From an uncultured Candidatus Saccharibacteria bacterium (lineage in GTDB: Bacteria; Patescibacteriota; Minisyncoccia; UBA6257; 2-01-FULL-56-20): a stretch of 64,000 bases of DNA. The DNA lies in contig CAZDFQ010000001.1 of NCBI GenBank assembly GCA_964505005.1, positions 50,458-114,457 on the forward strand, given 5' to 3'. Below the pieces are notes generated by a model. It saw nothing but the letters and a program-made list of their open reading frames with translations, searched no databases and was not told the origin of the DNA. Positions 16,114-53,452 of the stretch are shown piece after piece (position 1 is the stretch's first letter; each line of letters starts with the position of its first letter). A program made the position numbers and the translations under genes.

Positions 16114-17559
16114 TTATATCAGCGGTTCCGGTTCTTCGGGGATTTTTTCTTTCTTTTTGCCTTCGATAATGGCTTTTTCTTGGAGCGTCCGGATGATACT
16201 GGCTTCTTCCTCGGCAATCAGTCTTTTCGCCGCCGCCACGGTCATGGTATATTTCTGCCGCGACTGCTCGATTATTCTTCTCCGATACGACTGATGAGCG
16301 GCGGGCAGAACCTTCAGTGTTTCGGCTGAAAACGGGTCGTAGGTCTCGCCGTCAATGGTCATCTTGATGTAAAACTCCTGAGTGGCGAGATTAATCATAT
16401 CTTTTATATCGAACACCGGCGCCATCTCCGGTTTGAGCTTTACGGCGTCATCGCCGCCGACCCGGAAAACAATAATGGCGCCGCTGTTGCCAAGCACCGC
16501 GGCTTGAACGCGCGGCAAAAGCTGCCCCAAGTATTGATGAGCCACGGTCATACAGATGCCGTATTTGCGGAGCTCGGTCAGCATATTTTCAAAAGTTTCG
16601 GTAACCAAGTTGTGGAACTCGTCCACATAAAGATAAAAATCCTCGCGTTCGGCTTCGGCTAAATTAGCTCTGGCCATGCCGGCCTGTTTTATTTTGGTTA
16701 TGAACATCGAACCGAAAAAGCTGGAATTCTCCTCGCCCAATCTCCCTTTGCAGAGATTTATCAGGATTAATTTTTTTTCATTTATAAATCTTTCCAACTC
16801 GATTTTATTTTCTTTTTGACCGAAGATGTTCCGAAGAAGGGGGTCGGAGAAAAACTGGCCGAGTTTATTGACCAGCGGGATAATGGCGTCGGTATCGAAT
16901 TTCTCCGACCAATCGGCAAATTCAATGGCCCAAAACCGGCGGACCATATCGTCTTCGATGTGTTCAATGACTTTCTGGCGGTAATTCCGGTCGGTCAATA
17001 TAGAAATCATTCCCCGCATGGTGGCCTGAGGATAATCAAGAAGCGCCAGAATCGTAAAACGAAACACATGCTCAAGTCGAGGCGTCCAGTTGGCGCCGAA
17101 CTGTCTTTCGACCACTTCAATCAAACCCTGAGCCAGTTGATGTTTAAACATCGGGTCAACATTGACCAACGGATTGAAAGAAACCGGATGCTCGACATCG
17201 CTCGGGTCAATCAAAACCACATCCTCAATCCTTTCCTCGGGAATAAAATCGAGAATGTTATTGATGGTATCGCCGTGAGGGTCAATCAAACAGAGACCGT
17301 GGCTGTAAGCAACATCCTGACGAACCAGAAGTTCCAAAAGCTTGGACTTACCGACTCCGCTTTTGCCGACAATATAAACATGCCGGCGCCGATCGCCTCT
17401 TTTGATGCCGAAAATAAATTTCTTTTCTTCGAGGGCCGCCACATAATTTGTCCGACCGATAAAAGAAACATCGGCCGGATTAACCCGACCGTACACCGGC
17501 AGTTCCGGCGGCGGCGGCGCATATTTTATGATTTGGATTCTTCCTTCCCGAGGAGCCAT
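16114..17559 (-). CDS. VirD4/TraD-like P-loop ATPase (paralog of the N-terminal 480 aa of 8741..10897)
   Basis: 481 aa; FGIKRGDRRRHVYIVGKSGVGKSKLL Walker A, DEFHNL, AHQ; collinear similarity to the 718-aa protein. Confidence 0.8.
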   Translation of the reverse strand: MAPREGRIQIIKYAPPPPELPVYGRVNPADVSFIGRTNYVAALEEKKFIFGIKRGDRRRHVYIVGKSGVGKSKLLELLVRQDVAYSHGLCLIDPHGDTINNILDFIPEERIEDVVLIDPSDVEHPVSFNPLVNVDPMFKHQLAQGLIEVVERQFGANWTPRLEHVFRFTILALLDYPQATMRGMISILTDRNYRQKVIEHIEDDMVRRFWAIEFADWSEKFDTDAIIPLVNKLGQFFSDPLLRNIFGQKENKIELERFINEKKLILINLCKGRLGEENSSFFGSMFITKIKQAGMARANLAEAEREDFYLYVDEFHNLVTETFENMLTELRKYGICMTVAHQYLGQLLPRVQAAVLGNSGAIIVFRVGGDDAVKLKPEMAPVFDIKDMINLATQEFYIKMTIDGETYDPFSAETLKVLPAAHQSYRRRIIEQSRQKYTMTVAAAKRLIAEEEASIIRTLQEKAIIEGKKKEKIPEEPEPLI

Positions 17560-17729
17560 ATCTTAAGAAAATCCTAATTTCTAAATCCTAAATTCTAAAT
17601 AATCTCAAATGTTCTAAATCAAAATAAAAAATATGTTTATAATTTTGGATTTTGGTCATTTGTCCGCCATCTGGCGGATTATTTAGAAATTAGATAAATT
17701 AGATATTAGGATTTAGGATTTTTTATTAT
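17560..17729. repeat. composite palindromic intergenic repeat (family 1) with central GTCCGCCATCTGGCGGA hairpin
   Basis: aatcctaatttctaaatcctaaattctaaataatctcaaat ... gtcatttgtccgccatctggcggattatttagaaattagataaattagatattaggatttagg. Confidence 0.7.
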
Positions 17730-18209
17730 TTATATCGCTCCGACTTCATTCAAGAAGGCTTCATAATCATCAAGGACTCGGGCCGCTTCCTCAGAAGAAA
17801 TTTGGAAATTCGGTTCATGGACAAGTTGATTGCGGAGGCGATGGGCCCGCCAGAGCCGTTCCAAAGTAGTGAAATCATCCGGAGATAATTGCTCTATTCT
17901 ATCAGCCATGTGCTGGCCTCTGATTCCCATACGGCGCATAATGTCGTCGGCGAAATTATCAGCTTCGATAACGGCCAGTTTTATCGACCCCGGCGACCCA
18001 GCCGCGGCTCTTTTCAAAATGGCTTCCCAACGTTCCTTTAAGGCGACGCTCCCGAGAGTGAATATTCTTTCTTCGGCTTTGAAGAATTTGAATCTTGGAT
18101 AGAATTCCCGACTGTTTACGAAAAGAAAAACCAAAAGACCAAAAATAATTAAGTCGGCGAGGATGAAAATTATTTTCAGAATATTGTAAAGAGAAGAAAA
18201 CCAATCCAT
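17730..18209 (-). CDS. hypothetical membrane-anchored protein (N-terminal TM; C-terminal RxxxxxxHE HEPN-like motif, weak)
   Basis: 159 aa; LYNILKIIFILADLIIFGLLVFLF TM; motif RAHRLRNQLVHE. Confidence 0.4.
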   Translation of the reverse strand: MDWFSSLYNILKIIFILADLIIFGLLVFLFVNSREFYPRFKFFKAEERIFTLGSVALKERWEAILKRAAAGSPGSIKLAVIEADNFADDIMRRMGIRGQHMADRIEQLSPDDFTTLERLWRAHRLRNQLVHEPNFQISSEEAARVLDDYEAFLNEVGAI

Positions 18210-18354
18210 AAAAATAATAAATCCTAAACCCGAAATCCTAATTTCTAAATAATCCGCCAGGTGGCGAACAAATGACCAAAATCCAAAATTAAAAAGTTTT
18301 TAGAATTTGAAATTAGAATTTTGAATTTGTTTAGGATTTAGAGATTAGAGATTT
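18210..18354. repeat. composite palindromic intergenic repeat (family 1) with central CGCCAGGTGGCG hairpin
   Basis: aatcctaaacccgaaatcctaatttctaaataatccgccaggtggcgaacaaatgaccaaaatcc... Confidence 0.7.
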
Positions 18355-19707
18355 TTATTTATATTTCTCTATTTCTTCTTCGCCGCCGAAAACGGCCGTG
18401 CCCGCCGGCGGACCGGCTTTGCGGCTTTCGACCCGGCGGATGTGCGGCGCGGTCAGCACCAAATAGGTCGGCGGATGGAAAATGGTGGCCAGACATTCGG
18501 TATTCATGGCAAAACTTCGGGAAGTAAAATTCCAATTTAAAAGATGAGAAGTCAAAAGCCGACCCATAAATGTTTTGGGTGGTATTTCCCGGCGGCGGTA
18601 ATTGTAAAGAATTCTTGATTTGCGGTATTCATTTCTCCGCCGCGGGAAGAGATGAGGCCATTTCCAGAATCGAACGCGGGTGCTCATTGTTTCATTCCGA
18701 CTCAAAGAATTTAAATCCAGAGCGGCAAATTGATTGAAACAAGCGGTGATGGCCCGGCGAGGGAACGAATCGTAATAAAGGGATTTGGGTGAAAGATAGA
18801 TGAAGCGAATCAAAGTATCAAAAGCCGGTTTTGACAAATTGTTTTCCACGGCTTTCAAGACATCGGTCTCCCCGGGAGTTCTCATAAAAGAACGGAAAAA
18901 TTGCGTCCCGGCGTTCTGTTCCGGTTTTACGACTTCAAATTGCGGCAGCGGTCCGCCGTGAAATGAGGTGGCGGTTTTTGGTTTGGCGGCTTCGGCCGCG
19001 GCTTTTTTAAATCTCAACTCTTCAATCAATCCATCCCATTTATCGCGCCATTCCCTTGCTTTCGGAGCAATCAAAAACTGAATGCAGACAATCTCTTCTT
19101 TTTTAATCGTCGCCATAAATTCCAGAAAAGCGGCCATGGGGTCATATTGCTTTTCTTCTTCTGGGGCTTCAAACTCCGAATAAACTTTTATGGGGTAAGC
19201 TTCTTCGCGGTCCAGTTTCATCTCCGAACCCCATAAGTCATAGCCCTGCTCATGTAATTCTTTAATATTAGCCGGTAATCTCTCGATATAATCATCAATT
19301 TCAACAATTTCAATTTCCGGATAATAAGAAAGAAAAGCCGCTTCCAAAAGCCCTTTCTGAAGATTATAGCCTCTTACATAAAAGTGCGTTTCGCCGCCGA
19401 AGCTGGCTATTTCCAAGGCATACCAGCGGGTTATTTCGCCGTCCCACCATTTTTCGGCAATGTCGGCCGGCGCATTCCTTAAAGCGTGAAAAGAAGTAAA
19501 GACCTGCTCCATGGCCCGCGGATTTTTTCTGATTTCCCGCGGCATTTTCAATTCCAAAACCACCCAATTGAGCTTTTTCTTGAAAATTTCCTGGCGCCAA
19601 TAAAGCCAAGTGGAAATGCCGGCGGGCAAAAGAATGACAAACGCCCAAAACCACCAACTTAAAGACAGAAAGTTCAAAAGAACATCGGCAATAAAGTTGA
19701 AAGGCAT
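18355..19707 (-). CDS. hypothetical protein with N-terminal TM helices and large soluble domain (partner gene of VirD4-like ATPase block)
   Basis: 450 aa; no motif recognised; co-directional and tightly spaced with 17730..18209 and 16114..17559. Confidence 0.5.
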   Translation of the reverse strand: MPFNFIADVLLNFLSLSWWFWAFVILLPAGISTWLYWRQEIFKKKLNWVVLELKMPREIRKNPRAMEQVFTSFHALRNAPADIAEKWWDGEITRWYALEIASFGGETHFYVRGYNLQKGLLEAAFLSYYPEIEIVEIDDYIERLPANIKELHEQGYDLWGSEMKLDREEAYPIKVYSEFEAPEEEKQYDPMAAFLEFMATIKKEEIVCIQFLIAPKAREWRDKWDGLIEELRFKKAAAEAAKPKTATSFHGGPLPQFEVVKPEQNAGTQFFRSFMRTPGETDVLKAVENNLSKPAFDTLIRFIYLSPKSLYYDSFPRRAITACFNQFAALDLNSLSRNETMSTRVRFWKWPHLFPRRRNEYRKSRILYNYRRREIPPKTFMGRLLTSHLLNWNFTSRSFAMNTECLATIFHPPTYLVLTAPHIRRVESRKAGPPAGTAVFGGEEEIEKYK

Positions 19708-22414: not shown

Positions 22415-22660
22415 AAATTTCTAAATCCTAATTTCTAATCTCTAAATAATCTCTTCGCCAGAGGCGAATCCGCCTTCGGCGGAAAAATTCAAATCTCAAA
22501 AAAATTATAAAAAGTTTTTGAATTTTAATCATTTGACATTTGGATTTGTTAATGAAGCTTCACTTCATCAATCGGTTCGCTCGGCAACCACAAGAATTTA
22601 TTTATTCTTGTATTGCCTAGCTGCCGATTGTAGAGATTAGGGTTTAGAAATTAGAGATTA
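22415..22660. repeat. composite palindromic intergenic repeat (family 1) with central GCCAGAGGCGAATCCGCCTTCGGCGG double hairpin
   Basis: ctaaatcctaatttctaatctctaaataatctcttcgccagaggcgaatccgccttcggcggaaaaattcaaatctc ... tagagattagggtttagaaattagagatt. Confidence 0.7.
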
Positions 22661-23911
22661 TTATCTTCGATTCTTCACAAATACGCGGAGGAAAAGCCGG
22701 GTGGTGGTTATGGCGCTGAACATGCTGACCAAGACGCCGATGAAAAGCGTCAAAGCAAACCCTTGGACAAAGCTGGAAGTAGATTCGTAAAGAATGATAG
22801 CGGTGATGATGGTGCTAATATTGGAATCCCTGATTGAAGGCCAGGCCCGGCGGAAGCCCTCTTCAATGGCCGCGGTCCACGAAAGACCTTTTTTGATTTC
22901 TTCTTTGACTCTTTCGAAAATCAGGATATTGGCGTCAACGGCCATGCCGATGGTCAAGATGAAACCGGCCAAACCGGACAAGCTCAAAGTAATCGGGATG
23001 ATTTTGAAAATGCCGAGGGTCAGAGCAATGTAAATAACCAACGCTAAGGCCGCGAAAATGCCGAAAAAGCGGTAATAGCCGAGCATAAAAAGCATCACCA
23101 AAAGCGTGCCGATGAGGCCGGCAAAAATCGCTTTTTTCAAAGAATCAGTGCCGAGCGTCGGGCTGATGGTCTGCTGGCTGATGAGATTTATCGGCGCGGG
23201 CAGGGCGCCGGCGTTGAGCCGGGCCACTATTTTTTTGGCCAGATTGACGTCGAATTGCCCGGTAATCACCGCTTTGCCGTTCGGAATCTCTTCATTAACA
23301 TACGGACAGCTGATGGACAAATTGTCCGGGATAATCGGCTCGTTATCGATGAAAACGCAGAGCGGCTTGTTCAGATTTTTCCTGGTCATCTGCTGAAAAA
23401 TTTTGGCGCCGGTGTCGTTGAGCGTAAAGTCAATCTCCGGCTTAGTGGTGTTCTGGCTGAAACCAAGCTGCGAGTTCACAAGATAGCGGCCGGTGAGATT
23501 CGTCAGAACTAATATGGTCGAGGTGCCGTTCTGCTCCACTTCCCGGAAATCGAGGAGTGGCGTTTCGCCTATTTGGCGGATGGCCTCGGCAATGTTTCCC
23601 ACGCCGCAAAGCTCGGCGATAAGATTGGCTTTATTGCCAGATTGAGCGATGAACACCTGGGGCTCGCTGACGCCGAAAAGATTGACGCGGCGTTCGATGA
23701 CATCGCGCAGGCCGTTCAAAATAGAATCTCGGTCGTTCGCGGAAACGCTGGATAAATCAGCTTCATAGACCAGATAGCTGCCGCCGGCCAAATCGCAGCC
23801 CAGACGCCACGGCCGAAAACTCTGACCGACATATTTCGGATACACAAAAATAGCAGCCCCAACTGCCGCCACAACAATCAAAGACAATAGAGGACCCGGG
23901 TACTTTTTCAT
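22661..23911 (-). CDS. secD: protein translocase subunit SecD
   Basis: 416 aa; signal-anchor, periplasmic domain then C-terminal 6-TM bundle typical of SecD. Confidence 0.9.
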   Translation of the reverse strand: MKKYPGPLLSLIVVAAVGAAIFVYPKYVGQSFRPWRLGCDLAGGSYLVYEADLSSVSANDRDSILNGLRDVIERRVNLFGVSEPQVFIAQSGNKANLIAELCGVGNIAEAIRQIGETPLLDFREVEQNGTSTILVLTNLTGRYLVNSQLGFSQNTTKPEIDFTLNDTGAKIFQQMTRKNLNKPLCVFIDNEPIIPDNLSISCPYVNEEIPNGKAVITGQFDVNLAKKIVARLNAGALPAPINLISQQTISPTLGTDSLKKAIFAGLIGTLLVMLFMLGYYRFFGIFAALALVIYIALTLGIFKIIPITLSLSGLAGFILTIGMAVDANILIFERVKEEIKKGLSWTAAIEEGFRRAWPSIRDSNISTIITAIILYESTSSFVQGFALTLFIGVLVSMFSAITTTRLFLRVFVKNRR

Positions 23912-24067
23912 ATTAGCGCAATTCGAATGACTCGAATCCGACTCGAGCGTCTCGAAAATTTGTCCAAAAAGATTATTCTTATTCGAGCGATTCGAATGTA
24001 TCCGAGATATTCGAGTTGCATAATATTATATCTTTTGACGATATTCTATCTATTTTGCCGCATTTTT

Positions 24068-24112
24068 GCAAGAAAAAGAATGAGGGTCGCCCAGTTTAGA
24101 ACCAGGCGACCC
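24068..24112 (-). terminator. rho-independent terminator downstream of pup
   Basis: GGGTCGCC-cagtttagaacca-GGCGACCC hairpin followed on the minus strand by TCATTCTTTTTCTTGC. Confidence 0.55.
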
Positions 24113-24135
24113 CCGACTTACTCTCCTATCCGCCG

Positions 24136-24342
24136 CTACTCCCCGCCGCGCTGAACGAAATGTTTCAGTGCCTCGTGTTTCATATTTTCGTCCAGCACAT
24201 CGTCAATCTCGTCCACCAGCTTGTCTATGTCCTCCTTCAGCTGTTTCCCCTTCACCATCGCCGGATTGGCAGAGGCCGGAGCCGGCGCAGGTTCCTCACG
24301 GCGCGAGGAACTCGGTTTTTCTACCCGAACTTGTTCTGCCAT
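24136..24342 (-). CDS. pup: prokaryotic ubiquitin-like protein Pup (C-terminal GGE)
   Basis: 68 aa from the SD-preceded ATG (GAGGAGGGGGAAGCC ATG): MAEQVRVEKPSSSRREEPAPAPASANPAMVKGKQLKEDIDKLVDEIDDVLDENMKHEALKHFVQRGGE; C-terminal half aligns closely with M. tuberculosis Pup ...LLDEIDDVLEENAEDFVRAYVQKGGQ. Local GC is clearly higher than flanks. Confidence 0.7.
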   Translation of the reverse strand: MAEQVRVEKPSSSRREEPAPAPASANPAMVKGKQLKEDIDKLVDEIDDVLDENMKHEALKHFVQRGGE

Positions 24343-24545
24343 GGCTTCCCCCTCCTCTTGATGCAGGGTTTGTCCGATAGCCAAAACTCTTCGCTCCTAA
24401 GTTCTATCTAAACCCTATCAGAGCGAGTTTATTTTTGTCAATTACAAAATAATATAAATCCTCGCCTAAATTTATTACTTCAATATGTCAATAACTTTCA
24501 CTACTGCCTCTTGTTTATCTTGCGCGATAAGTTAATAATGAAAAT

Positions 24546-25745
24546 ATGGCTCTTAGAAAATTAGCATTTTTTGTTTTTACCGTCCTGATTGCCTTGTCGT
24601 TCTCGATGTCGCTCGGACTGGCGGCCACAACTAAAACCACAACCAAAACTTCCTTTTACTACGCCGGCTGGCTGCCGTTCTGGAAAAAGCAGAGCGGCGC
24701 CCAGGACATTTCCGATGAATTGTATAAATTCCGCGAATTGAGTCCGTTTTCTTACGAGGTCAAGGCAGATGGCACGCTGGTTGACAAACTGAAACTGACC
24801 GAGGGTTTTTGGCCGAACTGGCTGCTAGCGGCCCGCGACGCCGGCGTAAAAATCATCCCGACCATCGCCTGGTTTGACGGCCAGGACATTCATAAACTCC
24901 TTGCCAACAAAAAGAAACGGCTTGCTCACGAAGACGCCATTGCCAAACTCGTCAAAGATATGAAATTCGACGGCATTGACATTGACTACGAAAGCAAACT
25001 GCCGGAAACCAAAGATTATTTCTCCACTTTCATCTACGGTCTGGCGCTTCGGCTGCACAGCCAGAAAAAAATTCTTTCCTGCACCATCGAGGCCCGGATG
25101 CCACTGACTTCGCTTTTGGGCGGCGTGCCCAAAGACACCCGAAGAGCCAACGATTACGCGGCTCTGAACAAATACTGCGATGAGGTGCGGGTGATGGCTT
25201 ATGACCAGGGGTTGATTGACGGCCAGCTCGACCGGGCCAAGGGCAACAGCGGCACTCTTTACGCGCCAGTGGCTGACCCGGACTGGGTGAAAAAAGTTCT
25301 CGCTGAAACCTTGAAACAGATAAGCAAGAAAAAAATTATGCTCGGCATTCCGACTTACGGCTACGAATACGAAGTCAGCTGGTCGGACGGCTTTCTGACC
25401 TACAAGCGTCTGCGCACCCATACTTTTTTCCAGGCCATAAAAAGAGCTGTGGAGGTCGGCGCTGTCCAGCAAAGAAACTCTGCCGGCGAATTGAGTTTCA
25501 CTTACAGTACCAGCAACTCGGTCGGCGACTTCTCGCCTTCGCTGACCTGGCAGGTTTCCTCAACCCAGCCCGCAGTCATTGCTTCAGCCAGCGTCAATGG
25601 CCTTGCCACGCGTTTCGTTTCATTCAGCGACGCCGAATCCGCTATGCAAAAAATAGCCCTGGCCAAAAAATTAGGGCTCCGCGGCGTGGTCTTTTTCAAG
25701 CTCGACGGCGAACAAGACCCGTTCTTGTGGGAGAAGATAAAGTGA
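24546..25745 (+). CDS. secreted glycoside hydrolase family 18 (chitinase/YaaH-like)
   Basis: 399 aa; signal peptide; GH18 catalytic motif FDGIDIDYE. Confidence 0.7.
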   Translation: MALRKLAFFVFTVLIALSFSMSLGLAATTKTTTKTSFYYAGWLPFWKKQSGAQDISDELYKFRELSPFSYEVKADGTLVDKLKLTEGFWPNWLLAARDAGVKIIPTIAWFDGQDIHKLLANKKKRLAHEDAIAKLVKDMKFDGIDIDYESKLPETKDYFSTFIYGLALRLHSQKKILSCTIEARMPLTSLLGGVPKDTRRANDYAALNKYCDEVRVMAYDQGLIDGQLDRAKGNSGTLYAPVADPDWVKKVLAETLKQISKKKIMLGIPTYGYEYEVSWSDGFLTYKRLRTHTFFQAIKRAVEVGAVQQRNSAGELSFTYSTSNSVGDFSPSLTWQVSSTQPAVIASASVNGLATRFVSFSDAESAMQKIALAKKLGLRGVVFFKLDGEQDPFLWEKIK

Positions 25746-25806
25746 AAAAATAAGCGGAGCCGAGCATGATGCCCGGCTCCTGATTACCGCGAGCAGAATC
25801 AATCCT

Positions 25807-26598
25807 TCAGAAGAAAGGAAGGATTCGCTCGAAATCGCACTCTACACCGAATCGCAGGTTGGCTCCCGCGATATAGTGTAGCATCCTGTCGAGATCTAAC
25901 GCGTCTTCCGGCATCGGTGTCCGCAGGCGTCCCTCCGCATCGATACTCAGCTCCGGGAACTCCGGGACGAGCGGCTCGATGAAGTGAAGTGTATCAGGGC
26001 CGAGACCGCCCGCGACACCGAGACCGAGTATCCAATCCTTAGGAATCGCCCGAAGATACTCGGCTAACTTCGCGGCGTCAAGGAACGCTCCCTTGCCGCC
26101 GCTCGCATCAATGAGAATCGCATCGATCATCGGCAGATAGGCGCCGACGAGTTCCTCGAAGCGTTCCATTGACTCAACCTGTGCCATTGCCTTGCTGCCG
26201 ATTTGGAGCACGAGGAACTTGTCGGGGTGAATTTCCCAGTAGTCCTCGAGGTCCGAAATCGGTGGCCAGACAATGTTGAGCTGGAAGCCGTCGAGATAGG
26301 GTCCGGCGAGCTCTGTAATCTCGACGAGTTGACTAAGCAGCGTCTCGGGATGGTCGGTGCTGTAGTGGACGAGGTTGAGCGCCCGCGGGTCATCAACGAA
26401 GATGCCTGCGACATTTTCCCTTTTGGGATACCGACCAGGCCACTTGTTCGGTTGGCCGGCGAGCGTTTTGGAGCTCATCAGAACTCCCACCATGAGGCGG
26501 CGCGTCCCTCTCTGCGGAACCACAGCGAGTGCTGTGGTGACCTCGAATCGAGACATGAACCCTGTGACGCCAATGTAGGGGCCTGTTTTCTCCGCCAT
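25807..26598 (-). CDS. phosphoribosylanthranilate isomerase (TrpF/PRAI)-fold protein
   Basis: SD GGAAAGGAGG then MAEKTGPYIGVTG...VGVL...FQLN...ILIDASGGKGAFLD...GVAGGLGPDT; matches the TrpF KxCGxT / VGVF / QLHG / GG(T)G / AGGL pattern; ~58% GC islet. Confidence 0.5.
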   Translation of the reverse strand: MAEKTGPYIGVTGFMSRFEVTTALAVVPQRGTRRLMVGVLMSSKTLAGQPNKWPGRYPKRENVAGIFVDDPRALNLVHYSTDHPETLLSQLVEITELAGPYLDGFQLNIVWPPISDLEDYWEIHPDKFLVLQIGSKAMAQVESMERFEELVGAYLPMIDAILIDASGGKGAFLDAAKLAEYLRAIPKDWILGLGVAGGLGPDTLHFIEPLVPEFPELSIDAEGRLRTPMPEDALDLDRMLHYIAGANLRFGVECDFERILPFF

Positions 26599-26752
26599 TG
26601 TGGAGCCTCCTTTCCGGCTACCAGATGACATTCCATATGGATAATTGGGATTGCTGCGGATAATATACTGAAAAAGAAAGAAATTGTCCAGCACAATCGG
26701 CAGTGGGCTAAAAGTAAATGACCATATCTTGTCCGCCCTGCAAGACCTCCGG

Positions 26753-26980
26753 CTATAAATCCTCGGGAGTAAGACCTGTATGTTTTGAAATCAGATTGAG
26801 CATGCGCGGCCCTATCTCTTCGCGTTCATGAAATGCAAAAGTAATATCTGGCCACCCAGTTCTGCTAAGTATTCTATGCGAACCGCGCTGGCGCTTGATT
26901 CGCCAACCGATGGAAAACAGCGCTTTAAGAACACGCGATGCCTTAGCGGCGCGCCATCCCATAGTCAAACAAACGAGCAA
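26753..26980 (-). CDS. hicA: HicA-family mRNA interferase toxin
   Basis: …LKALFSIGWRIKRQRGSHRIL…LNLISKHTGL matches HicA (GW..R..GSHR). Confidence 0.6.
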   Translation of the reverse strand: MLVCLTMGWRAAKASRVLKALFSIGWRIKRQRGSHRILSRTGWPDITFAFHEREEIGPRMLNLISKHTGLTPEDL

Positions 26981-27182
26981 CTGACGGCGGAGTACTGCCT
27001 TGTTCTATGCTGTCCGCTAAAGTCCTGAGGGCGATGGCGTAAGCCCGTCGTAGGGCTTCTTGTTTAGTATCTCCGTAGGCCATTACCCCCGGCAGTTTCG
27101 GGATTTCAGCAATCCACCGACCGTCATTCTCGCGGTCGAACTGAACAGTAAAGTGGGTTTTGGATTTTGATTTCATACTCAT
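26943..27182 (-). CDS. hicB: HicB-family antitoxin
   Basis: MSMKSKSKTHFTVQFDRENDGRWIAEIPKLPGVMAYGDTKQEALRRAYAIALRTLADSIEQG; UPF0150/HicB pattern (EDGGY.A.VPELPGC...G.T.EEAL). Confidence 0.55.
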   Translation of the reverse strand: MSMKSKSKTHFTVQFDRENDGRWIAEIPKLPGVMAYGDTKQEALRRAYAIALRTLADSIEQGSTPPSVARLFDYGMARR

Positions 27183-27281
27183 ACTGCTATTGCCAATAAT
27201 TATAGATAAGTTGTTGCGAATTGCAATAGAGTGATACAAGAAGTTGGTAACACAATGTGTCTCCCCAGAAGGACTCGCCGT

Positions 27282-27578
27282 CTAATCCTTAGAAAGATTG
27301 GACGAGCCTCGTCCAACTTTTTTAAAAGTTGGACGGGAACCTGCAAAAATCTTTTTAATATTATTTCGACCAGCGCGACTTTTCCAATATTTTTCTCTCG
27401 ATTTGGCCTCGGCTAAAGAGCTAACTGGCTCCATATAAATTACTTTCCATGGCCGGAAAAATTTAGTCGCCATAACTCTCCCATTATTGTGATACCAAAG
27501 CCTCTCCTCTAAATTATCTGTATAGCCAGTGTATGTTCTTGGGACTTTTTCACTCGATAAAATATATACTACAAACAT
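27282..27578 (-). CDS. small GIY-YIG nuclease domain protein (UPF0213/YhbQ-like)
   Basis: MFVVYILSS...YTGYTDNLEERLWYHN...; ATG abuts the 3' end of a tRNA-Lys fragment (GGGCGGACAAATT ATG). Confidence 0.6.
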   Translation of the reverse strand: MFVVYILSSEKVPRTYTGYTDNLEERLWYHNNGRVMATKFFRPWKVIYMEPVSSLAEAKSREKYWKSRAGRNNIKKIFAGSRPTFKKVGRGSSNLSKD

Positions 27579-27581
27579 AAT

Positions 27582-27680
27582 TTGTCCGCCCTGAAGGATT
27601 CGAACCTTCGACCATCTCCTTTCCGCCAAAGGCGGATCAGCCTCTGGCTGAAAAAGGGAGCTGCTCTCTAAAATAAATGA
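27582..27680 (-). pseudogene. tRNA-Lys 3' fragment (from D-stem 3' side to acceptor end) carrying a ~32-nt GC double-hairpin insertion at anticodon-loop position ~37/38
   Basis: AGAGCAGCTCCCTTTTT[CAGCCAGAGGCTGATCCGCCTTTGGCGG]AAAGGAGATGGTCGAAGGTTCGAATCCTTCAGGGCGGACA; identical to the intact tRNA-Lys outside the insert; 5' half replaced by AT-rich sequence. Confidence 0.55.
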
Positions 27681-27685
27681 CTTTT

Positions 27686-27762
27686 GTCCGCCCTGAAGGA
27701 TTCGAACCTTCGACCATCTCCTTAAAAGGGAGCTGCTCTACCGGACTGAGCTAAGGGCGGAC
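27686..27762 (-). tRNA. tRNA-Lys (anticodon UUU)
   Basis: GTCCGCCCTTAGCTCAGTCCGGTAGAGCAGCTCCCTTTTAAGGAGATGGTCGAAGGTTCGAATCCTTCAGGGCGGACA; cloverleaf by eye, loop CTTTTAA; flanks extend the acceptor helix (AAATGACTTTT/AAAAGTCATTT). Confidence 0.8.
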
Positions 27763-28013: not shown

Positions 28014-28205
28014 ATTCGACCCTCTCCTTTCCGCCGAAGGCGGATCAGCCTCTGGCTGAAAAAGGCAGTTACTCTACCAGTTGAGCTACGGGGGATATTT
28101 ACTATCGACGAGCGCCCTGGTCCGCTAAAACTTGTTTTGCAAAGGGAGCTGCTGCTCTGCCTCCGCCAACCGGCGGATGAGCTACGGGGGGTTGTCTGCA
28201 ATCAA
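28013..28205 (-). pseudogene. two degenerate tRNA 5' fragments, each interrupted by the CCGCC..GGCGG hairpin element (one in anticodon loop, one in D-loop)
   Basis: CCCCCGTAGCTCAACTGGTAGAGTAACTGCCTTTTT[CAGCCAGAGGCTGATCCGCCTTCGGCGG]AAAGGAGAGGGTCGAAT and CCCCCGTAGCTCA[TCCGCCGGTTGGCGGA]GGCAGAGCAGCAGCTCCCTTTG. Confidence 0.4.
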
Positions 28206-31390: not shown

Positions 31391-31487
31391 CACATAATCC
31401 GAATGAATCCGAATAACATCCGAATGCCCCGAATAAATAAGTGGTATTCGTGTTATTCGGATGAATTCGGGTATTCGGATTATGCGG
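31391..31487. repeat. ~100-bp family-2 hairpin repeat (ATTCGGAT units), inverted partner of 36799..36896 (~93% identity as reverse complement)
   Basis: cacataatccgaatgaatccgaataacatccgaatgccccgaataaataagtggtattcgtgttattcggatgaattcgggtattcggattatgcgg. Confidence 0.65.
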
Positions 31488-36798: not shown

Positions 36799-36896
36799 CC
36801 ACATAATCCGGATACCCGAATTTATCCGAATGATACGAATACTGCTTATTTATTTGGGGCATTCGGATGTTATTCGGATTCATTCGGATTATGTGG
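36799..36896. repeat. ~100-bp family-2 hairpin repeat, inverted partner of 31391..31487
   Basis: ccacataatccggatacccgaatttatccgaatgatacgaatactgcttatttatttggggcattcggatgttattcggattcattcggattatgtgg. Confidence 0.65.
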
Positions 36897-36935
36897 TCTT
36901 CTCTATTTTGCGACATTTATGATAAAATGTATTGG

Positions 36936-37880
36936 ATGACTGAAATAGAAAAACTTTTGCAAAATTATTTGGATTATTTGGAAATTGAACGAAATCGTTC
37001 ACCGAAAACCCGGGAGAATTACGAACATTATCTCAAAGAATTTTTGCGGTTCAACCGCATCAGGAAACCGGAAGATATTACCGATGAAGCGGTCAGAAGC
37101 TTCCGGCTGGCTTTGGCCCGCCCGAATTTCGCAAAGCGAAACTCAAGCGGGCAAGTCCGAGCGCTCAAAAAAATCACCCAGAATTATTATGTCATCGCCA
37201 TCAGGAACTTTTTGAAATATCTCACTAAGAGGGATATCAAAGTTCTACCAGCGGAAAAAATCGAACTGCCCAAAACTCCCAGCCGCCAGCTCAAAATCAT
37301 CGATTACGGCGATTTGGAACGGCTGCTGGACGCGCCCAAAGGCGGCGATTTACGCTCGCTGCGGGATAAAGCGATTTTGGAAACGTTTTTTTCCACCGGC
37401 CTGCGGATTTCCGAGCTTTGTTCTTTGAATCGTTATTTGAATATCGACCGCGGCGAAATTACGGTCCGCGGCAAAGGTGATAAACTACGGCTTGTTTTTC
37501 TTTCTAACCGAGCCAAAAAGGCCATCAAAAACTATTTAGCTAAGCGGACTGACGCTGAAGAAGCGCTTTTTGTAAGTTTAACTAAAAGCTCAAAGCTCAA
37601 AGCTCAAAGCTTATCTAAAGTCATCGGCAGAATCATCCCCCGGACAGTCCAGCGCTTGGTGAGTTTTTACGCCCGAAAAGCCGGCATTAGCGAGCGCATA
37701 ACCCCTCATCAACTCCGGCATCAGTTCGCCACCGACCTTTTGCTGAACGGCGCTGACTTACGCTCGGTCCAAGCGCTTCTCGGCCATTCCAATATCTCCA
37801 CCACGCAAATTTACACCCATCTCACCAACAAAGAACTCCGTGAAGTCCATAAGGCCTTCCACGGGAGAAGGAGGAAATAA
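36936..37880 (+). CDS. tyrosine site-specific recombinase, XerC/XerD family
   Basis: Start taken at MTEIEKLLQNYLDYLEIERNRSPKTRENY... (the ORF-track start at 36867 lies inside the repeat); C-terminal RHQFATDLLLNGADLRSVQALLGHSNISTTQIYTHL catalytic R/H/Y region. Confidence 0.85.
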   Translation: MTEIEKLLQNYLDYLEIERNRSPKTRENYEHYLKEFLRFNRIRKPEDITDEAVRSFRLALARPNFAKRNSSGQVRALKKITQNYYVIAIRNFLKYLTKRDIKVLPAEKIELPKTPSRQLKIIDYGDLERLLDAPKGGDLRSLRDKAILETFFSTGLRISELCSLNRYLNIDRGEITVRGKGDKLRLVFLSNRAKKAIKNYLAKRTDAEEALFVSLTKSSKLKAQSLSKVIGRIIPRTVQRLVSFYARKAGISERITPHQLRHQFATDLLLNGADLRSVQALLGHSNISTTQIYTHLTNKELREVHKAFHGRRRK

Positions 37881-37885
37881 ATTTA

Positions 37886-37930
37886 GTAAGTGCACGTTGC
37901 TGGGTCGAACCAGCGGTCTTTTCGACTTGC
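37886..37930 (-). pseudogene. tRNA 3'-end-like remnant (T-arm plus acceptor strand) between recombinase gene and tRNA-Val
   Basis: minus-strand reading GACCGCTGGTTCGACCCAGCAACGTGCAC has a T-arm-like GCTGG-TTCGAC-CCAGC; weak. Confidence 0.3.
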
Positions 37931-37944
37931 CCCGTTAAATTTTT

Positions 37945-38016
37945 GTGGACGGTGCAGGGATTGAACCTGCGACCTCTCGCATGTGAAGCGAGCGTTCTGC
38001 CACTGAACTAACCGTC
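37945..38016 (-). tRNA. tRNA-Val (anticodon CAC)
   Basis: GGACGGTTAGTTCAGTGGCAGAACGCTCGCTTCACATGCGAGAGGTCGCAGGTTCAATCCCTGCACCGTCCA; anticodon stem CTCGC/GCGAG, loop TTCACAT. Confidence 0.8.
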
Positions 38017-38106
38017 CGATTGAGTGCCACGTCTGCCCGTCATAGCTTTACGCGAAGACGGGAGCTAAGAACGCTATGAAAACATCTTATATAATATTAT
38101 CATATG

Positions 38107-38241: not shown

Positions 38242-38853
38242 ATGCCAAGCCGCGCTGGAAAGTATATTTTGCTTCTAACTGTTCTAATTTCGACGCTGTT
38301 TCTTTTTCGTTCTCAGGAATCGGCTCCGCAAATAGTAAAATTCCCTGCCCCGAACCACTCAATTCAGCCGGTGGTTTCTCAATCAGCGACTTCCAGCGGT
38401 CAAAACACAAATTTAAAAACAAGTAGAACCCTCGCCTCGGTAATCCGCGTTATTGACGGCGACACAATTGTTGCCAATATTGGCGGTAAATTGACGCGAG
38501 TGCGTTTGATCGGCATTGATTCGCCAGAGGTCGTTGACCCGCGAAAGTCGGTTCAGTGTTTCGGCGAAGAAGCCAGAAATGAAGCTGAGATGCTGCTCGC
38601 CGGCAAAAATATATTTCTCGAAAAAGACCCAAGCCAGGGCGATTACGACAAATATGGCCGGTTGTTGGCCTATGTTTTCACTGCGGATGGCGACAATTTC
38701 AACGAATTGATGATTGAGAACGGCTACGCTTATGAATACACCTATCGCCTGCCCTATAAATATCAGAGCGATTTCAAAGCCAGCCAACGAGAAGCGGAAC
38801 GTCTCCAAAAAGGACTTTGGAATCCGGAAGTGTGCCCGGCAAAAACAAAATAA
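38242..38853 (+). CDS. secreted/membrane-anchored thermonuclease (staphylococcal nuclease, SNase-like)
   Basis: 203 aa; N-terminal TM/signal; VIRVIDGDTIV...RVRLIGIDSPE...YGRLLAYVF SNc motifs. Confidence 0.75.
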   Translation: MPSRAGKYILLLTVLISTLFLFRSQESAPQIVKFPAPNHSIQPVVSQSATSSGQNTNLKTSRTLASVIRVIDGDTIVANIGGKLTRVRLIGIDSPEVVDPRKSVQCFGEEARNEAEMLLAGKNIFLEKDPSQGDYDKYGRLLAYVFTADGDNFNELMIENGYAYEYTYRLPYKYQSDFKASQREAERLQKGLWNPEVCPAKTK

Positions 38854-39544: not shown

Positions 39545-39718
39545 AAATTTACAATCTCTAATTTCTAAATCCTAATTTCTAAATAATCTCAAATGTCCAA
39601 AATCCGAAGTTCAAAACCGTTTTTGAAATTTGAAATTAGAATTTTGAATTTATTTAGGATTTAGATATTAGGATTTAGGATTTCACATTATGACGACCTT
39701 TTTGCCCTTCGATTGAAC
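39545..39718. repeat. composite palindromic intergenic repeat (family 1)
   Basis: tctctaatttctaaatcctaatttctaaataatctcaaatgtccaaaatccgaagttcaaaaccgtttttgaaatttgaaattagaattttgaatttatttaggatttagatattaggatttagg. Confidence 0.7.
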
Positions 39719-49019: not shown

Positions 49020-49260
49020 ATCAAACTGCCTCCTTCCCGGCTCTTAGCCGAGAGTATTGTCCTGGGTTTAATTGCCCTTTATGAAAAGCTGCAACTTCCC
49101 AGAAAGGATAATCAAAATTTTATCTTTAAATTTATAAAATCGGGATTTATATGCAAAGAGAGGTTGCGAAGCAACCGGCTGAAAACCCCGTGTTGGAAGA
49201 TAGGAGCGAAGCGACGTAAGAAACCCGAGGGTGTCTTAAGCGGGGGTCGGGGTTTTCAGG

Positions 49261-49549
49261 TGCCGCGGGGGTGAATCGAACACCCGACGCCATGCTCTTC
49301 CATAAGGACTATATCATCATCCGGTTTTCAAACGGATGCGAGGCGCTTCCTCCGACGTAACGTCGGCGTACTCCCAAAGGGATAGTCTCTACACCTGCCC
49401 CGGCTAATGTCGGGGATTGGCTCGGGATTGTCCGCCCCATCCGTAGATGCCGGCGGAGTTCCCCCGAATTCACCTCGTTTTCATCTAAGCATTACTGCTT
49501 AGCGGCCCGAAGATTCCAGGCATGCGCTCTACCACTGAGCTACCGCGGC
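49261..49549 (-). tRNA. tRNA (probably Phe, anticodon GAA after splicing) interrupted by a ~217-nt group I intron in the anticodon loop
   Basis: 5' exon GCCGCGGTAGCTCAGTGGTAGAGCGCATGCCT (49549-49518), 3' exon GAAGAGCATGGCGTCGGGTGTTCGATTCACCCCCGCGGCA (49300-49261); intron (49517-49301) ends in G, preceding exon ends in U, and contains GGTGTAGAGACTA and CCGAGCCAA, near-identical to the Azoarcus tRNA-Ile group I (IC3) intron core; exon junction and anticodon are inferred. Confidence 0.65.
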
Positions 49550-51016: not shown

Positions 51017-51931
51017 ATGAAAATCATCGGCGAAAAAATCAGATGGATTGACATTCAGCAGCCCGCGGAGGGAGACATCAACTGGCTGCAGAAAAATTTT
51101 AGTTTCCATCCGCTGATTATTAAGGAATTGAAGAAATCGTCGGCTCGTTCGAAAGTTGATGCATTCGACGACTATCTCTATCTCATTTATCATCTTCCGG
51201 TTTATGACTCTTTGGAAAAAGTTTCGCGGCGTTCGGAAATCGATTTTTTGCTTACCAAGAACGATGTCATTACGGTGCATTACGACGACATCGAAGTATT
51301 TTCCGATTTCCAAAAATCGCTGATGAATGAAGCCGCCGGCCGGCAGCTGAAAGAAAAAATCCCGGGAAACACCCTCAAACTGACTTACGAACTTCTCAGC
51401 CGGCTTATCAATTTTCATCAGCGGCAGCTGAACCACGTCGAGGAAGAAGTCGAAGACATCGGCAATGAGCTTTTCAAAAACAAGGAAAAAGAACTCCTGA
51501 AAAAAATTTCTTACGCCAAGCGGAACATTTCCGAATACCAACTGATTGTCAAGCCTCAGCAGCATCTTTTCAGTTCTTTTCTCGAAAGCGGGTCGAATTT
51601 CTGGGGCAAAGAAAGCCGGGTTTATTTAGCCGACTTGGCCGGCGAATACCTGAAGCTTCTCCAGCGGCTCGAGTCGTCCCGCGAGGCCGTCACCGATTTT
51701 GAAACCACCAACAACCAGTTGATGGATATGAAAACCAATGAAATTATGAAGACCTTTACGATTCTGGCGTTTTCCACTTTTCCGTTGGTGCTGCTGGCCG
51801 GAATTTTCTCGATGAAGACCGCTGGCGTGCCTCTGACAAACAACCCGGCTGGTTTCTGGATTGTGGTCGGCATTATGGCAGCCGTTCTTGTTCTGATGTT
51901 CATTTATTTCAAGCGCAAACGTTGGCTCTGA
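51017..51931 (+). CDS. CorA-like divalent-cation transporter with non-canonical pore motif (SMK instead of GMN)
   Basis: 304 aa; CorA architecture: long cytoplasmic domain, two C-terminal TM helices, AGIFSMKTAG where GMN is expected, terminal KRKRW. Confidence 0.55.
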   Translation: MKIIGEKIRWIDIQQPAEGDINWLQKNFSFHPLIIKELKKSSARSKVDAFDDYLYLIYHLPVYDSLEKVSRRSEIDFLLTKNDVITVHYDDIEVFSDFQKSLMNEAAGRQLKEKIPGNTLKLTYELLSRLINFHQRQLNHVEEEVEDIGNELFKNKEKELLKKISYAKRNISEYQLIVKPQQHLFSSFLESGSNFWGKESRVYLADLAGEYLKLLQRLESSREAVTDFETTNNQLMDMKTNEIMKTFTILAFSTFPLVLLAGIFSMKTAGVPLTNNPAGFWIVVGIMAAVLVLMFIYFKRKRWL

Positions 51932-52020
51932 TTTTAAATTTCTAAATTCTAATCTCTAATTTCTAATTTCTAAATAATCTCAAAATCCAAATTTCAAATT
52001 CTGAAACGAACGCCTGAATA
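51932..52020. repeat. intergenic repeat (family 1 units, single arm)
   Basis: ttttaaatttctaaattctaatctctaatttctaatttctaaataatctcaaaatccaaatttcaaattctg. Confidence 0.6.
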
Positions 52021-52103: not shown

Positions 52104-52462
52104 GAAGGAGGTGAAGGGAGAAGCTGTTTGACAAGGGCGACCGTTTCGGTTGGGCGATGTAGCTGTCAGGGCGGGGTGACCGTTGGGGTTGGGCGAGCTG
52201 TACGGATGGGGTGACCATTCTCCGGGGGCGAGCTGTTTCATCTGGGTGGCCGTAATTGAGGGGCGCAGTAACCAACTCGCTAAGGAGGTGATGAGAGCTG
52301 TGTTTATGGGGTGACCGTTTATCCGGGGCGAGCTGTATGAGGTGGGTGGCCGTCTTGTGAGGGCGAGCTGTTCTTTAAGGGTGACCGTGGCCCATGGGTG
52401 AGCTGTTGTAGCAGGGTGACCGTAGAAAATGGGCGTAGTAACTACGCCGAAGGAGGAATGAA
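52104..52462. repeat. array of alternating short direct repeats R1 GGGCGAGCTGT and R2 GGGTGACCGT, each followed by a variable 7-mer (35-bp period, ~8 units), upstream of the IS110-like ORF
   Basis: e.g. gggcgagctgt-acggatg-gggtgaccat-tctccgg-gggcgagctgt-ttcatct-gggtggccgt-aattgag...; units 1, 5 and the last are split by SD-containing inserts (AAGGAGGTGA...). Confidence 0.75.
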
Positions 52463-53248
52463 ATGGAGACGAGGAAGACGGGGCTGAACGAGTTGGAAGA
52501 GCGGATCGTCGTGGCTGCGTACAAGCTGGTGGAAGCCCAGCGGCAGCGCGGCCGCATCGGCCGGATAATCGGCAGAATCAAGCCGACAGCTGGCCGAAAC
52601 GGTTGGAAGCCCAAGCCGCCTGGGCCACTCCGGCATCTCCGCGTCCAGGCCTTCGCCGAAGTCGGCTTCAGCGAACCCGAATACGAGGCCTGGGAGCCGA
52701 AGATCGAGGAGTACCGACAGGAGCTCCAGGCGCTCGTGCGTGAGCATCCGGTTTGGACCACTTGGGCTGTCAAGGTGCCGGGTCTTGGGAAGACGATGAC
52801 CGGCCTGGTAATGGCCGCCATCGGCGATGTGACGCGGGTGCACACCGCGTCCGGGCTCTGGAAGTCGTTTGGCCTCCATGTGGACAACGAGACCAAAATG
52901 GCGGTCAAGCCCCAACCCGGCGTACCCGGTACGCTTGGCCATCCGTTCGCCAGGAAAATCCTGGGCGTGATGCGGTCAACCTACTTCCGCATCGGCGCCA
53001 AGGGCCAGGGCGGTTTCTATTACGACCGCTACCTGGAGAAGCGCCGGGAGTACGACCAAGCGCATCCGGACTGGCCCGAAGGCCGGCGCCTGGGCGCGGC
53101 AATCCGCAAGTTCGAGAAACTTCTCCTCTCCCACATCTGGGAGGTGTGGAGAAGGTCCAAGGGCCTACCGGTGTTGCCGCCTTATGCCGTGGCCCAACCC
53201 TGGAGCCTGCACAAAAAAATCAGGCCCGAGGAAGCGATGGCGCAGTAA
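52463..53248 (+). CDS. IS110-family transposase C-terminal (Transposase_20-like, HhH/IGD) domain protein lacking the DEDD RuvC-like N-domain; Arg-rich N-terminus
   Basis: 261 aa; VKVPGLGKTMTGLVMAAIGDVTRVHTASGLWKSFGLHVDNETKMAVKPQPG fits IS110 C-domain (IPGIG..TA..L.AEIGD..RF.S...L..Y.GL.P....SG); N-term RQRGRIGRIIGRIKPTAGRNGWKPKPP; strong [18 protein letters not shown]; ~62% GC. Confidence 0.5.
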   Translation: METRKTGLNELEERIVVAAYKLVEAQRQRGRIGRIIGRIKPTAGRNGWKPKPPGPLRHLRVQAFAEVGFSEPEYEAWEPKIEEYRQELQALVREHPVWTTWAVKVPGLGKTMTGLVMAAIGDVTRVHTASGLWKSFGLHVDNETKMAVKPQPGVPGTLGHPFARKILGVMRSTYFRIGAKGQGGFYYDRYLEKRREYDQAHPDWPEGRRLGAAIRKFEKLLLSHIWEVWRRSKGLPVLPPYAVAQPWSLHKKIRPEEAMAQ

Positions 53249-53452
53249 GCCCGAAGGGTAAACTGTATGAATTGGGTGCCCGTACGTCTGGGGCGAGCTG
53301 TTTGCATTGGGTGACCGTTTTTGCGGGGCGAGCCGTACTACGCGGAGTGACCGTGGCCCGAGGGCGAGCTGTTTGACAAGGGCGACCGTGGTTGTTGGGC
53401 GAGCTGTGGGGGCTGGGTGACCGTTTCGAGAGGGCGCTGTTCAACAAAAGGA
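53249..53452. repeat. downstream array of the same R1/R2 + 7-mer units (~7 units)
   Basis: ggggcgagctgt-ttgcatt-gggtgaccgt-ttttgcg-gggcgagccgt-actacgc-ggagtgaccgt-ggcccga-gggcgagctgt-ttgacaa-gggcgaccgt-...; 7-mer ttgacaa also present in upstream array. Confidence 0.75.

Follow-up and report, generated by a model that had tools for sequence, protein, structure and literature searches.

A pup gene between secD and a GH18 gene

The window, as we call the 64-kb stretch of contig CAZDFQ010000001.1 analysed here (64,000 nt; all positions below refer to it), carries on its minus strand a 68-codon open reading frame (ORF) whose product, MAEQVRVEKPSSSRREEPAPAPASANPAMVKGKQLKEDIDKLVDEIDDVLDENMKHEALKHFVQRGGE, is a homologue of Pup, the prokaryotic ubiquitin-like protein. 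The gene lies upstream of secD and is divergent from a gene for a secreted glycoside hydrolase of family GH18, beyond which follows orf263 (Table 1). A first-pass annotation of this DNA, made from the letters and their translations, had named the neighbours as secD, a secreted GH18 and a gene of the phosphoribosylanthranilate isomerase (PRAI) fold, and all three are present.

The same annotation had proposed a 68-residue Pup homologue ending in GGE, and the Pup-profile search that was run bears this out: Pfam PF05639 (Pup) matches the protein (E = 1.8e-12, 48.4 bits; cutoff 27), with residues 13–68 aligned to profile positions 12–69 of 69. M. tuberculosis Pup chains in the PDB are matched with E = 1.4e-5 to 8e-5 and are aligned to the last residue, and a profile built from 231 Pups gives 87 bits (E = 8e-25). 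A generic acidic helix is thereby ruled out, as the two profile E-values together with the exact C-terminal register exclude chance. Length and terminus are as the family expects, with …FVQRGGE directly before the stop codon, and no other ORF of at least 30 residues in the six frames of the window ends in GG[EQ]. The terminal residue is Glu in 81% and Gln in 19% of a 230-sequence Pup alignment.

The sole NCBIfam match of the protein is likewise a Pup model, TIGR03687 (pupylate_cterm, an equivalog domain covering the C-terminal 33 residues), where it scores 29.5 bits (E = 5.5e-7) and stays below the cutoff of 41.45 that its relatives P0002 (61.8 bits), P0084 (50.2) and P0229 (45.6) pass. Its Pfam match, its length, the GGE end and the invariant residues make it a genuine member of the Pup family, and it is not an equivalog by the NCBIfam model. 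The tag itself belongs to a known family, whose distribution is modestly widened by its occurrence in a Paceibacteria host.

Table 1. Features of the pup locus, in window coordinates.
Feature	Position	Strand	Basis and remarks
secD, 3' of pup	22661..23911	-	Pfam SecD families; 60–67% identity to 80 Paceibacteria genomes
Two promoter-like sites toward secD, past the pup terminator	24025..24071	-	10/12 and 9/12 consensus matches only
Intrinsic-terminator-like hairpin with T-rich tail	24072..24114	-	Terminator scan, RNA folding
Pup-family coding sequence, 68 residues + stop	24136..24342	-	ATG at 24342–24340; C-terminus …FVQRGGE; Pfam and PDB matches
5' leader	24343..24384	-	Gene callers' longer ORF from TTG at 24384 gives the 82-residue P0001
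Shine-Dalgarno core AGGAGG	24351..24356	-	8 nt before the pup ATG
AT-rich divergent intergenic stretch, pup/GH18 (full: 24343–24545)	24385..24545	.	Sequence, promoter scan
Gene for secreted glycoside hydrolase (GH18), oriented away from pup	24546..25745	+	PF00704, E = 1.8e-24
orf263 (263-residue TIM-barrel protein; 263/295 residues)	25807..26598	-	AlphaFold, PDB comparison

Uneven conservation of the C-terminal half

The window Pup has retained every fully invariant column of the 230-sequence alignment (D40, D47, L50, Q64 and G67), together with the terminal Glu and three near-invariant residues (I46, N53 and G66). The family consensus is matched throughout helix 1 and at the terminus (D40, D44, E45, I46, D47, V49, L50, N53, V63, Q64, G66, G67). 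Between N53 and V63, in contrast, the protein reads MKHEALKHF where the family reads AEEFVKNY. This includes a one-residue insertion in the linker before helix 2, which 98% of the family lack, and the substitutions Ala to Lys, Glu to His, Val to Leu, Asn to His and Tyr to Phe, as well as Phe to Ala at residue 58, a position at which Phe is 95% conserved and which corresponds by alignment to Phe54 of M. tuberculosis Pup. Within residues 54–62 the protein departs from the consensus at seven of nine conserved positions, against two of 20 in the rest of residues 32–68 (Fisher p = 7e-4 for a segment chosen post hoc).

The last ~27 residues of Pup form two helices in the groove of PafA/Dop (PMC8599861), and the altered segment falls on the linker and the first part of helix 2. 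It is this divergence, which the first-pass annotation had not noted, that places the window Pup below the TIGR03687 cutoff. That the changes are clustered argues most strongly against a simple relic and keeps functional readings alive.

Start site and expression signals

Gene callers extend the ORF to an upstream TTG, which is probably not the true start. The ATG that gives the 68-residue product is preferred because AGGAGG directly precedes it and because several homologues begin with MAEQ, an N-terminus common to P0084, P0228, P0235 and P0243. The strong Shine-Dalgarno (SD) sequence noted in the first-pass annotation is real, and it is rare in its surroundings: a core of at least 5 nt is found at four of 48 gene starts in the window, namely those of pup, orf263, one GIY-YIG gene and the Tas-like ORF described below, and AT-rich leaders that lack an SD precede the housekeeping genes (dnaK, dnaJ, secD, L10, L7/L12, cysS and others). 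GGAGG(T) stands at the corresponding place in three of four homologous pup genes inspected in the Nitrospirota, the donor-like clade considered below.

The hairpin terminator that had been attributed to pup was also recovered. It begins 22 nt past the stop codon as a stem-loop of 15 pairs, nine of them G-C (24114–24082, minus strand), followed by a T run, and its folding energy of −31.1 kcal/mol lies well below that of shuffled sequences (z = −3.36). The promoter-like sites for secD come after this terminator, and pup is therefore taken as a separate transcription unit. The promoters of both pup and the GH18 gene presumably lie within 24343–24545, although no consensus sigma-70 site on the pup side of this intergenic region passed the scan. 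Taken together, these signals suggest that pup is an independently expressed gene, divergent from that of GH18.

Short AT-rich repeats (AAATCTCTAATTTCT-like 14-mers and AATCCGAATG-like 10-mers) recur in many intergenic spacers of the window, for example at 2514–2627, 17569–17600, 31396–31436, 36860–36890, 39553–39683 and 51926–51975. Copies of a TTCGAAT/CTCGA-type repeat also occur between the pup terminator and secD.

The host chromosome and the neighbouring genes

The loci around secD in 80 species-representative metagenome-assembled genomes (MAGs; 1.2 Mb in total) served as the comparison set. SecD of the window is 60–67% identical to its counterparts in these genomes, which are mostly Paceibacterota, Parcubacteria, Liptonbacteria, Jorgensenbacteria, Wolfebacteria or similar. 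Downstream, the genes of the order secD–secF–sigma70r4/HARE–orf450–orf159–TrwB-like ATPase (481 residues) are present in 54–79 of the 80 loci; upstream, a dnaK–orf369–dnaJ block followed by a variable spacer and secD occurs in about 15. Because of the SecD identity and this recurring gene order, the window is assigned to a chromosome segment of Paceibacteria, within the candidate phyla radiation (CPR). The earlier suggestion of a CPR-like genome thus holds, with the flanking order recurring in parts.

The junctions around pup are not the product of misassembly. A Logan assembly of the sequencing run SRR5161805 is 100% identical to the window over 5153 bp (22458–27610, covering orf263, GH18, pup and secD), a second run, SRR5161795, holds part of the same stretch, and assembly chimerism is excluded for practical purposes.

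The first-pass annotation had also suggested comparing the codon usage and GC of 24100–26700 with the genome. This block does not form a single island. In a relative without Pup (locus L008), a GH18 homologue of 74% identity takes the same place next to secD, and by this comparison the GH18 gene is native to the Paceibacteria lineage and was not transferred together with pup. For orf263 we found 1090 homologues and no Pfam or NCBIfam match even at E = 5; among the matches listed (the best 120 of the 1090), the six that carry organism names come from Yanofsky-, Zambryski- and Buchananbacteria, the Parcubacteria group and an unclassified bacterium. A co-transferred island at 24100–26700 was therefore rejected, with GH18 native and the named members of the orf263 family belonging to the CPR or Parcubacteria group.

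We also considered orf263 as a novel ligase. Its AlphaFold model (mean predicted local distance difference test score 95.1) is most similar in the PDB to the TIM barrel of MJ1099, which binds phosphoribosyl pyrophosphate (template modelling score 0.56–0.61), and its invariant residues include Y8, G10, G13, H78, Y79, Q106, N108, W111, D164 and D220. The candidate was rejected, as the predicted fold is a TIM barrel and not that of a glutamine-synthetase-like ligase.

Distribution and origin of the gene

Neither tblastn nor a profile search of six-frame ORFs found Pup in any of the 80 related Paceibacteria loci. The slot that pup occupies is the variable dnaJ–secD spacer, and in L008 the place between GH18 and secD is taken by a 115-residue ORF which has no Pup similarity and reads from its sequence as a tRNA-binding domain. 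In a set of 5.8 billion protein clusters the exact window protein forms a singleton. An exhaustive HMMER search of 1.84 billion representatives returned 405 relatives, none above ~62% identity, and among these representatives the window Pup forms a 50% cluster of its own; a search for it in the contigs of GTDB species-representative genomes gave 600 pattern matches, of which none was confirmed, and that set thus holds no close relative with this Pup. P0226 (814 residues, 11 matched stretches) was rejected as a relative, being a repeat-protein artefact of summed weak matches.

All matches that carry an organism name are Pups of Nitrospirota or Nitrospira. These Pups (for example P0002, P0007 and P0085) are the best database matches, are 50–57% identical to the window Pup over the full length and share with it the lead-in ANP..V..GK, an identical 16-residue block, LKEDIDKLVDEIDDVL, and the GGE end. 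They differ in their host phylum, in their flanks (hppA and recJ-relA in place of GH18 and secD) and in the altered segment, where Nitrospira Pups read NAEEFVKNY and the window Pup NMKHEALKHF, which is mirrored by TIGR03687 scores of 61.8 and 29.5 bits. Compared with a Nitrospiraceae gene, 12 of the 16 codons of LKEDIDKLVDEIDDVL differ synonymously and none non-synonymously, which points to an old divergence and to purifying selection on the block; synonymous sites are essentially saturated in this comparison. The most similar Pups from outside the Nitrospirota (P0227, P0229, P0230, P0244, P0254 and P0084) all lie on short metagenomic contigs. Some of these show partly similar variants, such as the end …NREELLHFVQKGGE in P0227 and the start MANQVRVEKP in P0229, and the window Pup may therefore belong to a thinly sampled sub-lineage.

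Composition gives mixed evidence on origin. The GC content of pup had been described as higher than that of the surrounding genes, which is correct overall (0.560 against 0.51–0.52 in secD and GH18) but not at third codon positions (GC3), where pup (0.638) equals secD (0.643) and GH18 (0.645). The codon-usage comparison that had been suggested does mark the gene as atypical: by log-likelihood ratio it falls within the lowest 2.5–3.5% of native 68-codon chunks and within the top 1.4–1.9% of Nitrospirota chunks, and is thus intermediate.

Since pup is absent from the 80 relatives, its named matches are Nitrospirota, its codon usage is atypical and its SD is of the donor type, horizontal acquisition by this lineage alone is favoured, with a Nitrospirota-type or an unsampled lineage as the probable donor; both direction and donor are inferred. 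Lateral acquisition was also what the first-pass annotation had proposed, and it stands as the best reading, whereas the host lineage named there as a possible source is without evidence. Two vehicles were considered. Searching 50,697 phage records by tblastn gave no match, and an island linked to tRNA-Lys was rejected, as the repeats of the tRNA 3' end bracket only HicAB and a GIY-YIG gene at 26723–27723.

Pupylation machinery and the solitary pup of the nearest relatives

Pfam scans of ~55 ORFs across the window, including every ORF of at least 300 residues, found no Pup ligase or deamidase (PF03136), no proteasome subunits and no ARC/Mpa-type AAA ATPase, in agreement with the earlier remark that no pupylation or proteasome genes lie nearby. 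The gene content is otherwise ordinary for the CPR (murG, ftsW, comEC, trmD, an M1 peptidase, dnaK/dnaJ/grpE, SMC, rnc and nusB, further glmS, cofD, ribosomal protein S1, corA, cysS, dnaB, recR and ychF). Three genes of the neighbourhood, orf450, orf159 and orf369, are conserved in relatives that lack Pup and are therefore not Pup partners.

The linkage arc/mpa-dop-pup-prcBA-pafA, a hallmark of Actinobacteria in which the order of the locus is rigidly conserved (PMC3511204), is absent here, where pup adjoins secD and GH18. That such isolation is anomalous had been the premise of the first-pass annotation; it applies to Actinobacteria and fails for the nearest relatives. Three Nitrospira-type pup genes were inspected, including the commonest one (indexed in 1100 collection blocks). 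They stand in the order hppA-pup-recJ-relA, and no pupylation enzyme was found within 10 kb on either side of them. The context of P0084 is x-pup-fpg. By these examples a solitary pup is the norm in the donor-like clade. It follows that the transfer of only a few hundred bases would bring pup by itself, and that a window free of ligase genes is weak evidence about the genome.

Comparison with known Pup systems

Actinobacterial Pup (Rv2111c; PDB 3M9D, 3M91 and 7PX9; Corynebacterium glutamicum 4BJR) resembles the window protein in its PF05639 match, size and disorder, in the DEIDDVL.EN core and in the VQ+GG[EQ] terminus, which aligns to the last residue, and actinobacterial species with a GGE-type Pup need no Dop deamidation either (PMC3511204). 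The identity to M. tuberculosis Pup is ~44% (18 of the last 41 residues). Besides its position outside the conserved locus, the window Pup differs in having Ala58 in place of Phe54 and an extra residue between helices 1 and 2.

Dop/PafA homologues are known from Actinobacteria and Nitrospirae and sporadically from NC10, Armatimonadetes, Verrucomicrobia, Nitrospinae, Firmicutes, Proteobacteria and Planctomycetes; the survey names no CPR phylum (PMC7947786). Our literature search found no paper that ties Pup or PafA to the CPR or Patescibacteria. None of the NCBIfam matches (E up to 10) of the window Pup and seven diverse homologues was a model for UBact, a family of Pup homologues from Gram-negative bacteria and candidate phyla, and none came up in any of the libraries used. 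UBact was reportedly described by Lehmann et al. in 2017 from some genomes of the Parcubacteria group, together with conjugation enzymes; its genes are said to adjoin Mpa-, Dop/PafA- and proteasome-like genes and its C-terminal motif to be different, whereas the window Pup is solitary and has the canonical QRGGE end.

A probable orphan tag and its alternatives

Pup is a disordered protein whose central helix docks on the coiled coil of Mpa/ARC and whose last ~27 residues fold into the groove of the ligase; PafA then joins the side chain of the terminal Glu to a substrate lysine, for which GGQ forms, and not GGE forms, must first be processed by Dop (PMC3511204, PMC8599861). The first-pass annotation was accordingly right that a terminal GGE would not need Dop deamidation, which is established for GGE forms (PMC3511204). 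On the sequence evidence, the window Pup would have the elements for all these steps except a canonical helix 2.

We propose that a Paceibacteria lineage gained pup alone, from a Nitrospirota-type or unsampled donor in which the gene was solitary, and that it inserted in the variable dnaJ–secD spacer, where a donor-style AGGAGG and its own terminator would allow independent expression. The product would combine a disordered N-terminal half with an amphipathic helix-1/Mpa-binding block, LKEDIDKLVDEIDDVL, at family consensus, and a ligase of the PafA type could join the gamma-carboxylate of the terminal Glu in VQRGGE to lysines of substrates with no prior deamidation. We think that the gene most probably encodes an orphan tag without a cognate Pup-proteasome system, acquired alone and either not yet decayed or partly exapted, and put the probability of this at roughly 0.6. 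We lean this way because ligase, ARC and proteasome genes are missing from the 64 kb, the neighbour orf263 is a TIM barrel, helix 2 has diverged and TIGR03687 gives 29.5 bits.

Several points weigh against the orphan tag. The deviations are clustered and do not resemble the uniform decay of a neutral relic, and co-evolution with a partner could explain them; nor is there damage to the ORF, the SD, the terminator or the GGE end. The ligase search covers the 64-kb window of a 222-kb contig, and the ligase of the donor clade is likewise more than 10 kb away from pup. The reported UBact systems would raise the prior for a pathway in the CPR. As to acquisition, the donor cannot be named, most of the close matches are metagenomic fragments, and a protein this short gives no robust tree.

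The alternative is a working tag in a dispersed pathway, which we consider possible though clearly the less probable explanation. A PafA-type ligase would be encoded elsewhere in the genome, possibly with ARC/Mpa and a proteasome or another protease; Pup-GGE would be conjugated directly as in GGE-type Actinobacteria and in Nitrospirota, and the altered helix 2 would be the outcome of co-evolution with this ligase. The intact gene and expression signals, the retention of every fully invariant column and of the GGE end, the core block with its 12 synonymous and no non-synonymous changes and the confinement of the deviations to one segment would all be expected for a tag in use, and the distance between pup and ligase in the nearest clade means that absence from the window says little. 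Against such a pathway stand the lack of all three enzyme families in the window and of Pup in all 80 related loci, and, as the donor clade carries pup by itself, the enzymes would have had to arrive through several separate transfers. The C-terminal domain moreover scores below a cutoff that its relatives pass, CPR genomes are small, and no CPR phylum appears among the known carriers of Dop/PafA (PMC7947786).

It is improbable that Pup has been exapted or serves as a host-directed mimic, with the ligase-less Pup of a likely episymbiont engaging a Pup-recognising coiled-coil ATPase or the ligase of its partner, or acting as a ligase-independent binder in its own cell. In the first form it would either disturb the Pup system of a partner such as Nitrospira or an actinobacterium or become conjugated by that system; in the second it would bind a partner other than PafA in the CPR cell. 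A helix-1/Mpa-binding block equal to the Nitrospirota consensus beside a remodelled ligase-binding helix 2 would suit this role, the uneven conservation suggests that selection has acted on one part of the protein, and the gene is unique to this lineage. The protein has, however, no signal peptide and no linked secretion system, and VQRGGE, which is needed only for ligation, is conserved, as would be expected of a conjugated tag more than of a simple binder; the proposal is inferential throughout. An artefact (a chimeric assembly, contamination by a piece of Nitrospirota DNA or an acidic-helix ORF arisen by chance), to which the match to another phylum and the slightly raised GC might point, is scarcely credible given the identical 5153-bp stretch in an independent assembly, CPR-type flanks within 250 bp on both sides (secD 67% and GH18 74% identical to Paceibacteria), an identity of 50–57% to any Nitrospirota Pup, which is too low for contaminating reads, and the profile E-values and C-terminal register given above.

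A pup gene in a Paceibacteria chromosome indicates that the gene for the tag alone can cross between distant phyla, and it amounts to a natural experiment. Should the genome lack PafA, it would show for what time an orphan tag persists and which form it then takes, here with core and terminus kept and helix 2 remodelled; should it encode PafA, regulated protein tagging would extend to ultra-small symbiotic bacteria. A mimic, if true, would be a Pup repurposed outside the canonical Pup-proteasome pathway. As it stands, the finding modestly extends the distribution of Pup and is not a new system, and its importance hinges on the presence of a ligase.

Other elements in the window

Downstream of secD, at 16114–19707, orf450 (no Pfam match) recurs in 58 of the related loci, orf159 in 28 and the TrwB/VirD4-like 481-residue ATPase in 54. 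The ATPase is up to 80% identical across loci, far above its neighbours.

The 3' 41 nt of tRNA-Lys(UUU) (27686–27760, minus strand) are duplicated exactly at 27581–27621, and a degenerate third copy is found at 26723–26745. These repeats bracket a HicA/HicB toxin-antitoxin pair (26753–27239) and a GIY-YIG ORF (27282–27629) in the manner of integration scars, with pup outside. A 61-nt repeat (27607–27667 and 28015–28075, 92% identical) precedes both GIY-YIG ORFs. Elsewhere, a tyrosine recombinase/integrase gene (36867–37880, plus strand) adjoins tRNA-Val(CAC) (37945–38017, minus strand), followed by a gene for a secreted SNase-like nuclease (38242–38853), and the integrase/tRNA-Val site at 36867–38017 may be another integration hotspot.

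A group I intron of 217 nt splits the tRNA-Phe(GAA) gene (49259–49549, minus strand) in the anticodon loop. The Rfam model RF00028 covers 49295–49527 with 63.6 bits, and ARAGORN finds the tRNA only with its intron option or after splicing in silico.

A TIGR-Tas-like locus occupies 52122–53437. Its ORF (52463–53248, plus strand; 261 residues) matches NCBIfam NF052498 (TIGR-Tas system RNA-guided endonuclease) with E = 1.4e-21, its 77 bits falling short of the cutoff (100), and also PDB 9mty_A, a protein with an IS110-type C-terminal domain (E = 6e-11). The ORF is flanked by arrays of ~35-nt units, 8–9 of them upstream (52122–52436) and 4–5 downstream (53261–53437). Each unit reads AGCTGT-[~9 variable]-GGGTGACCGT-[~9 variable]-GGGCGA and so holds a pair of short stretches that vary. 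In GC content (0.589; GC3 of the ORF 0.80) the locus stands highest in the window, and it carries one of the four strong SDs.

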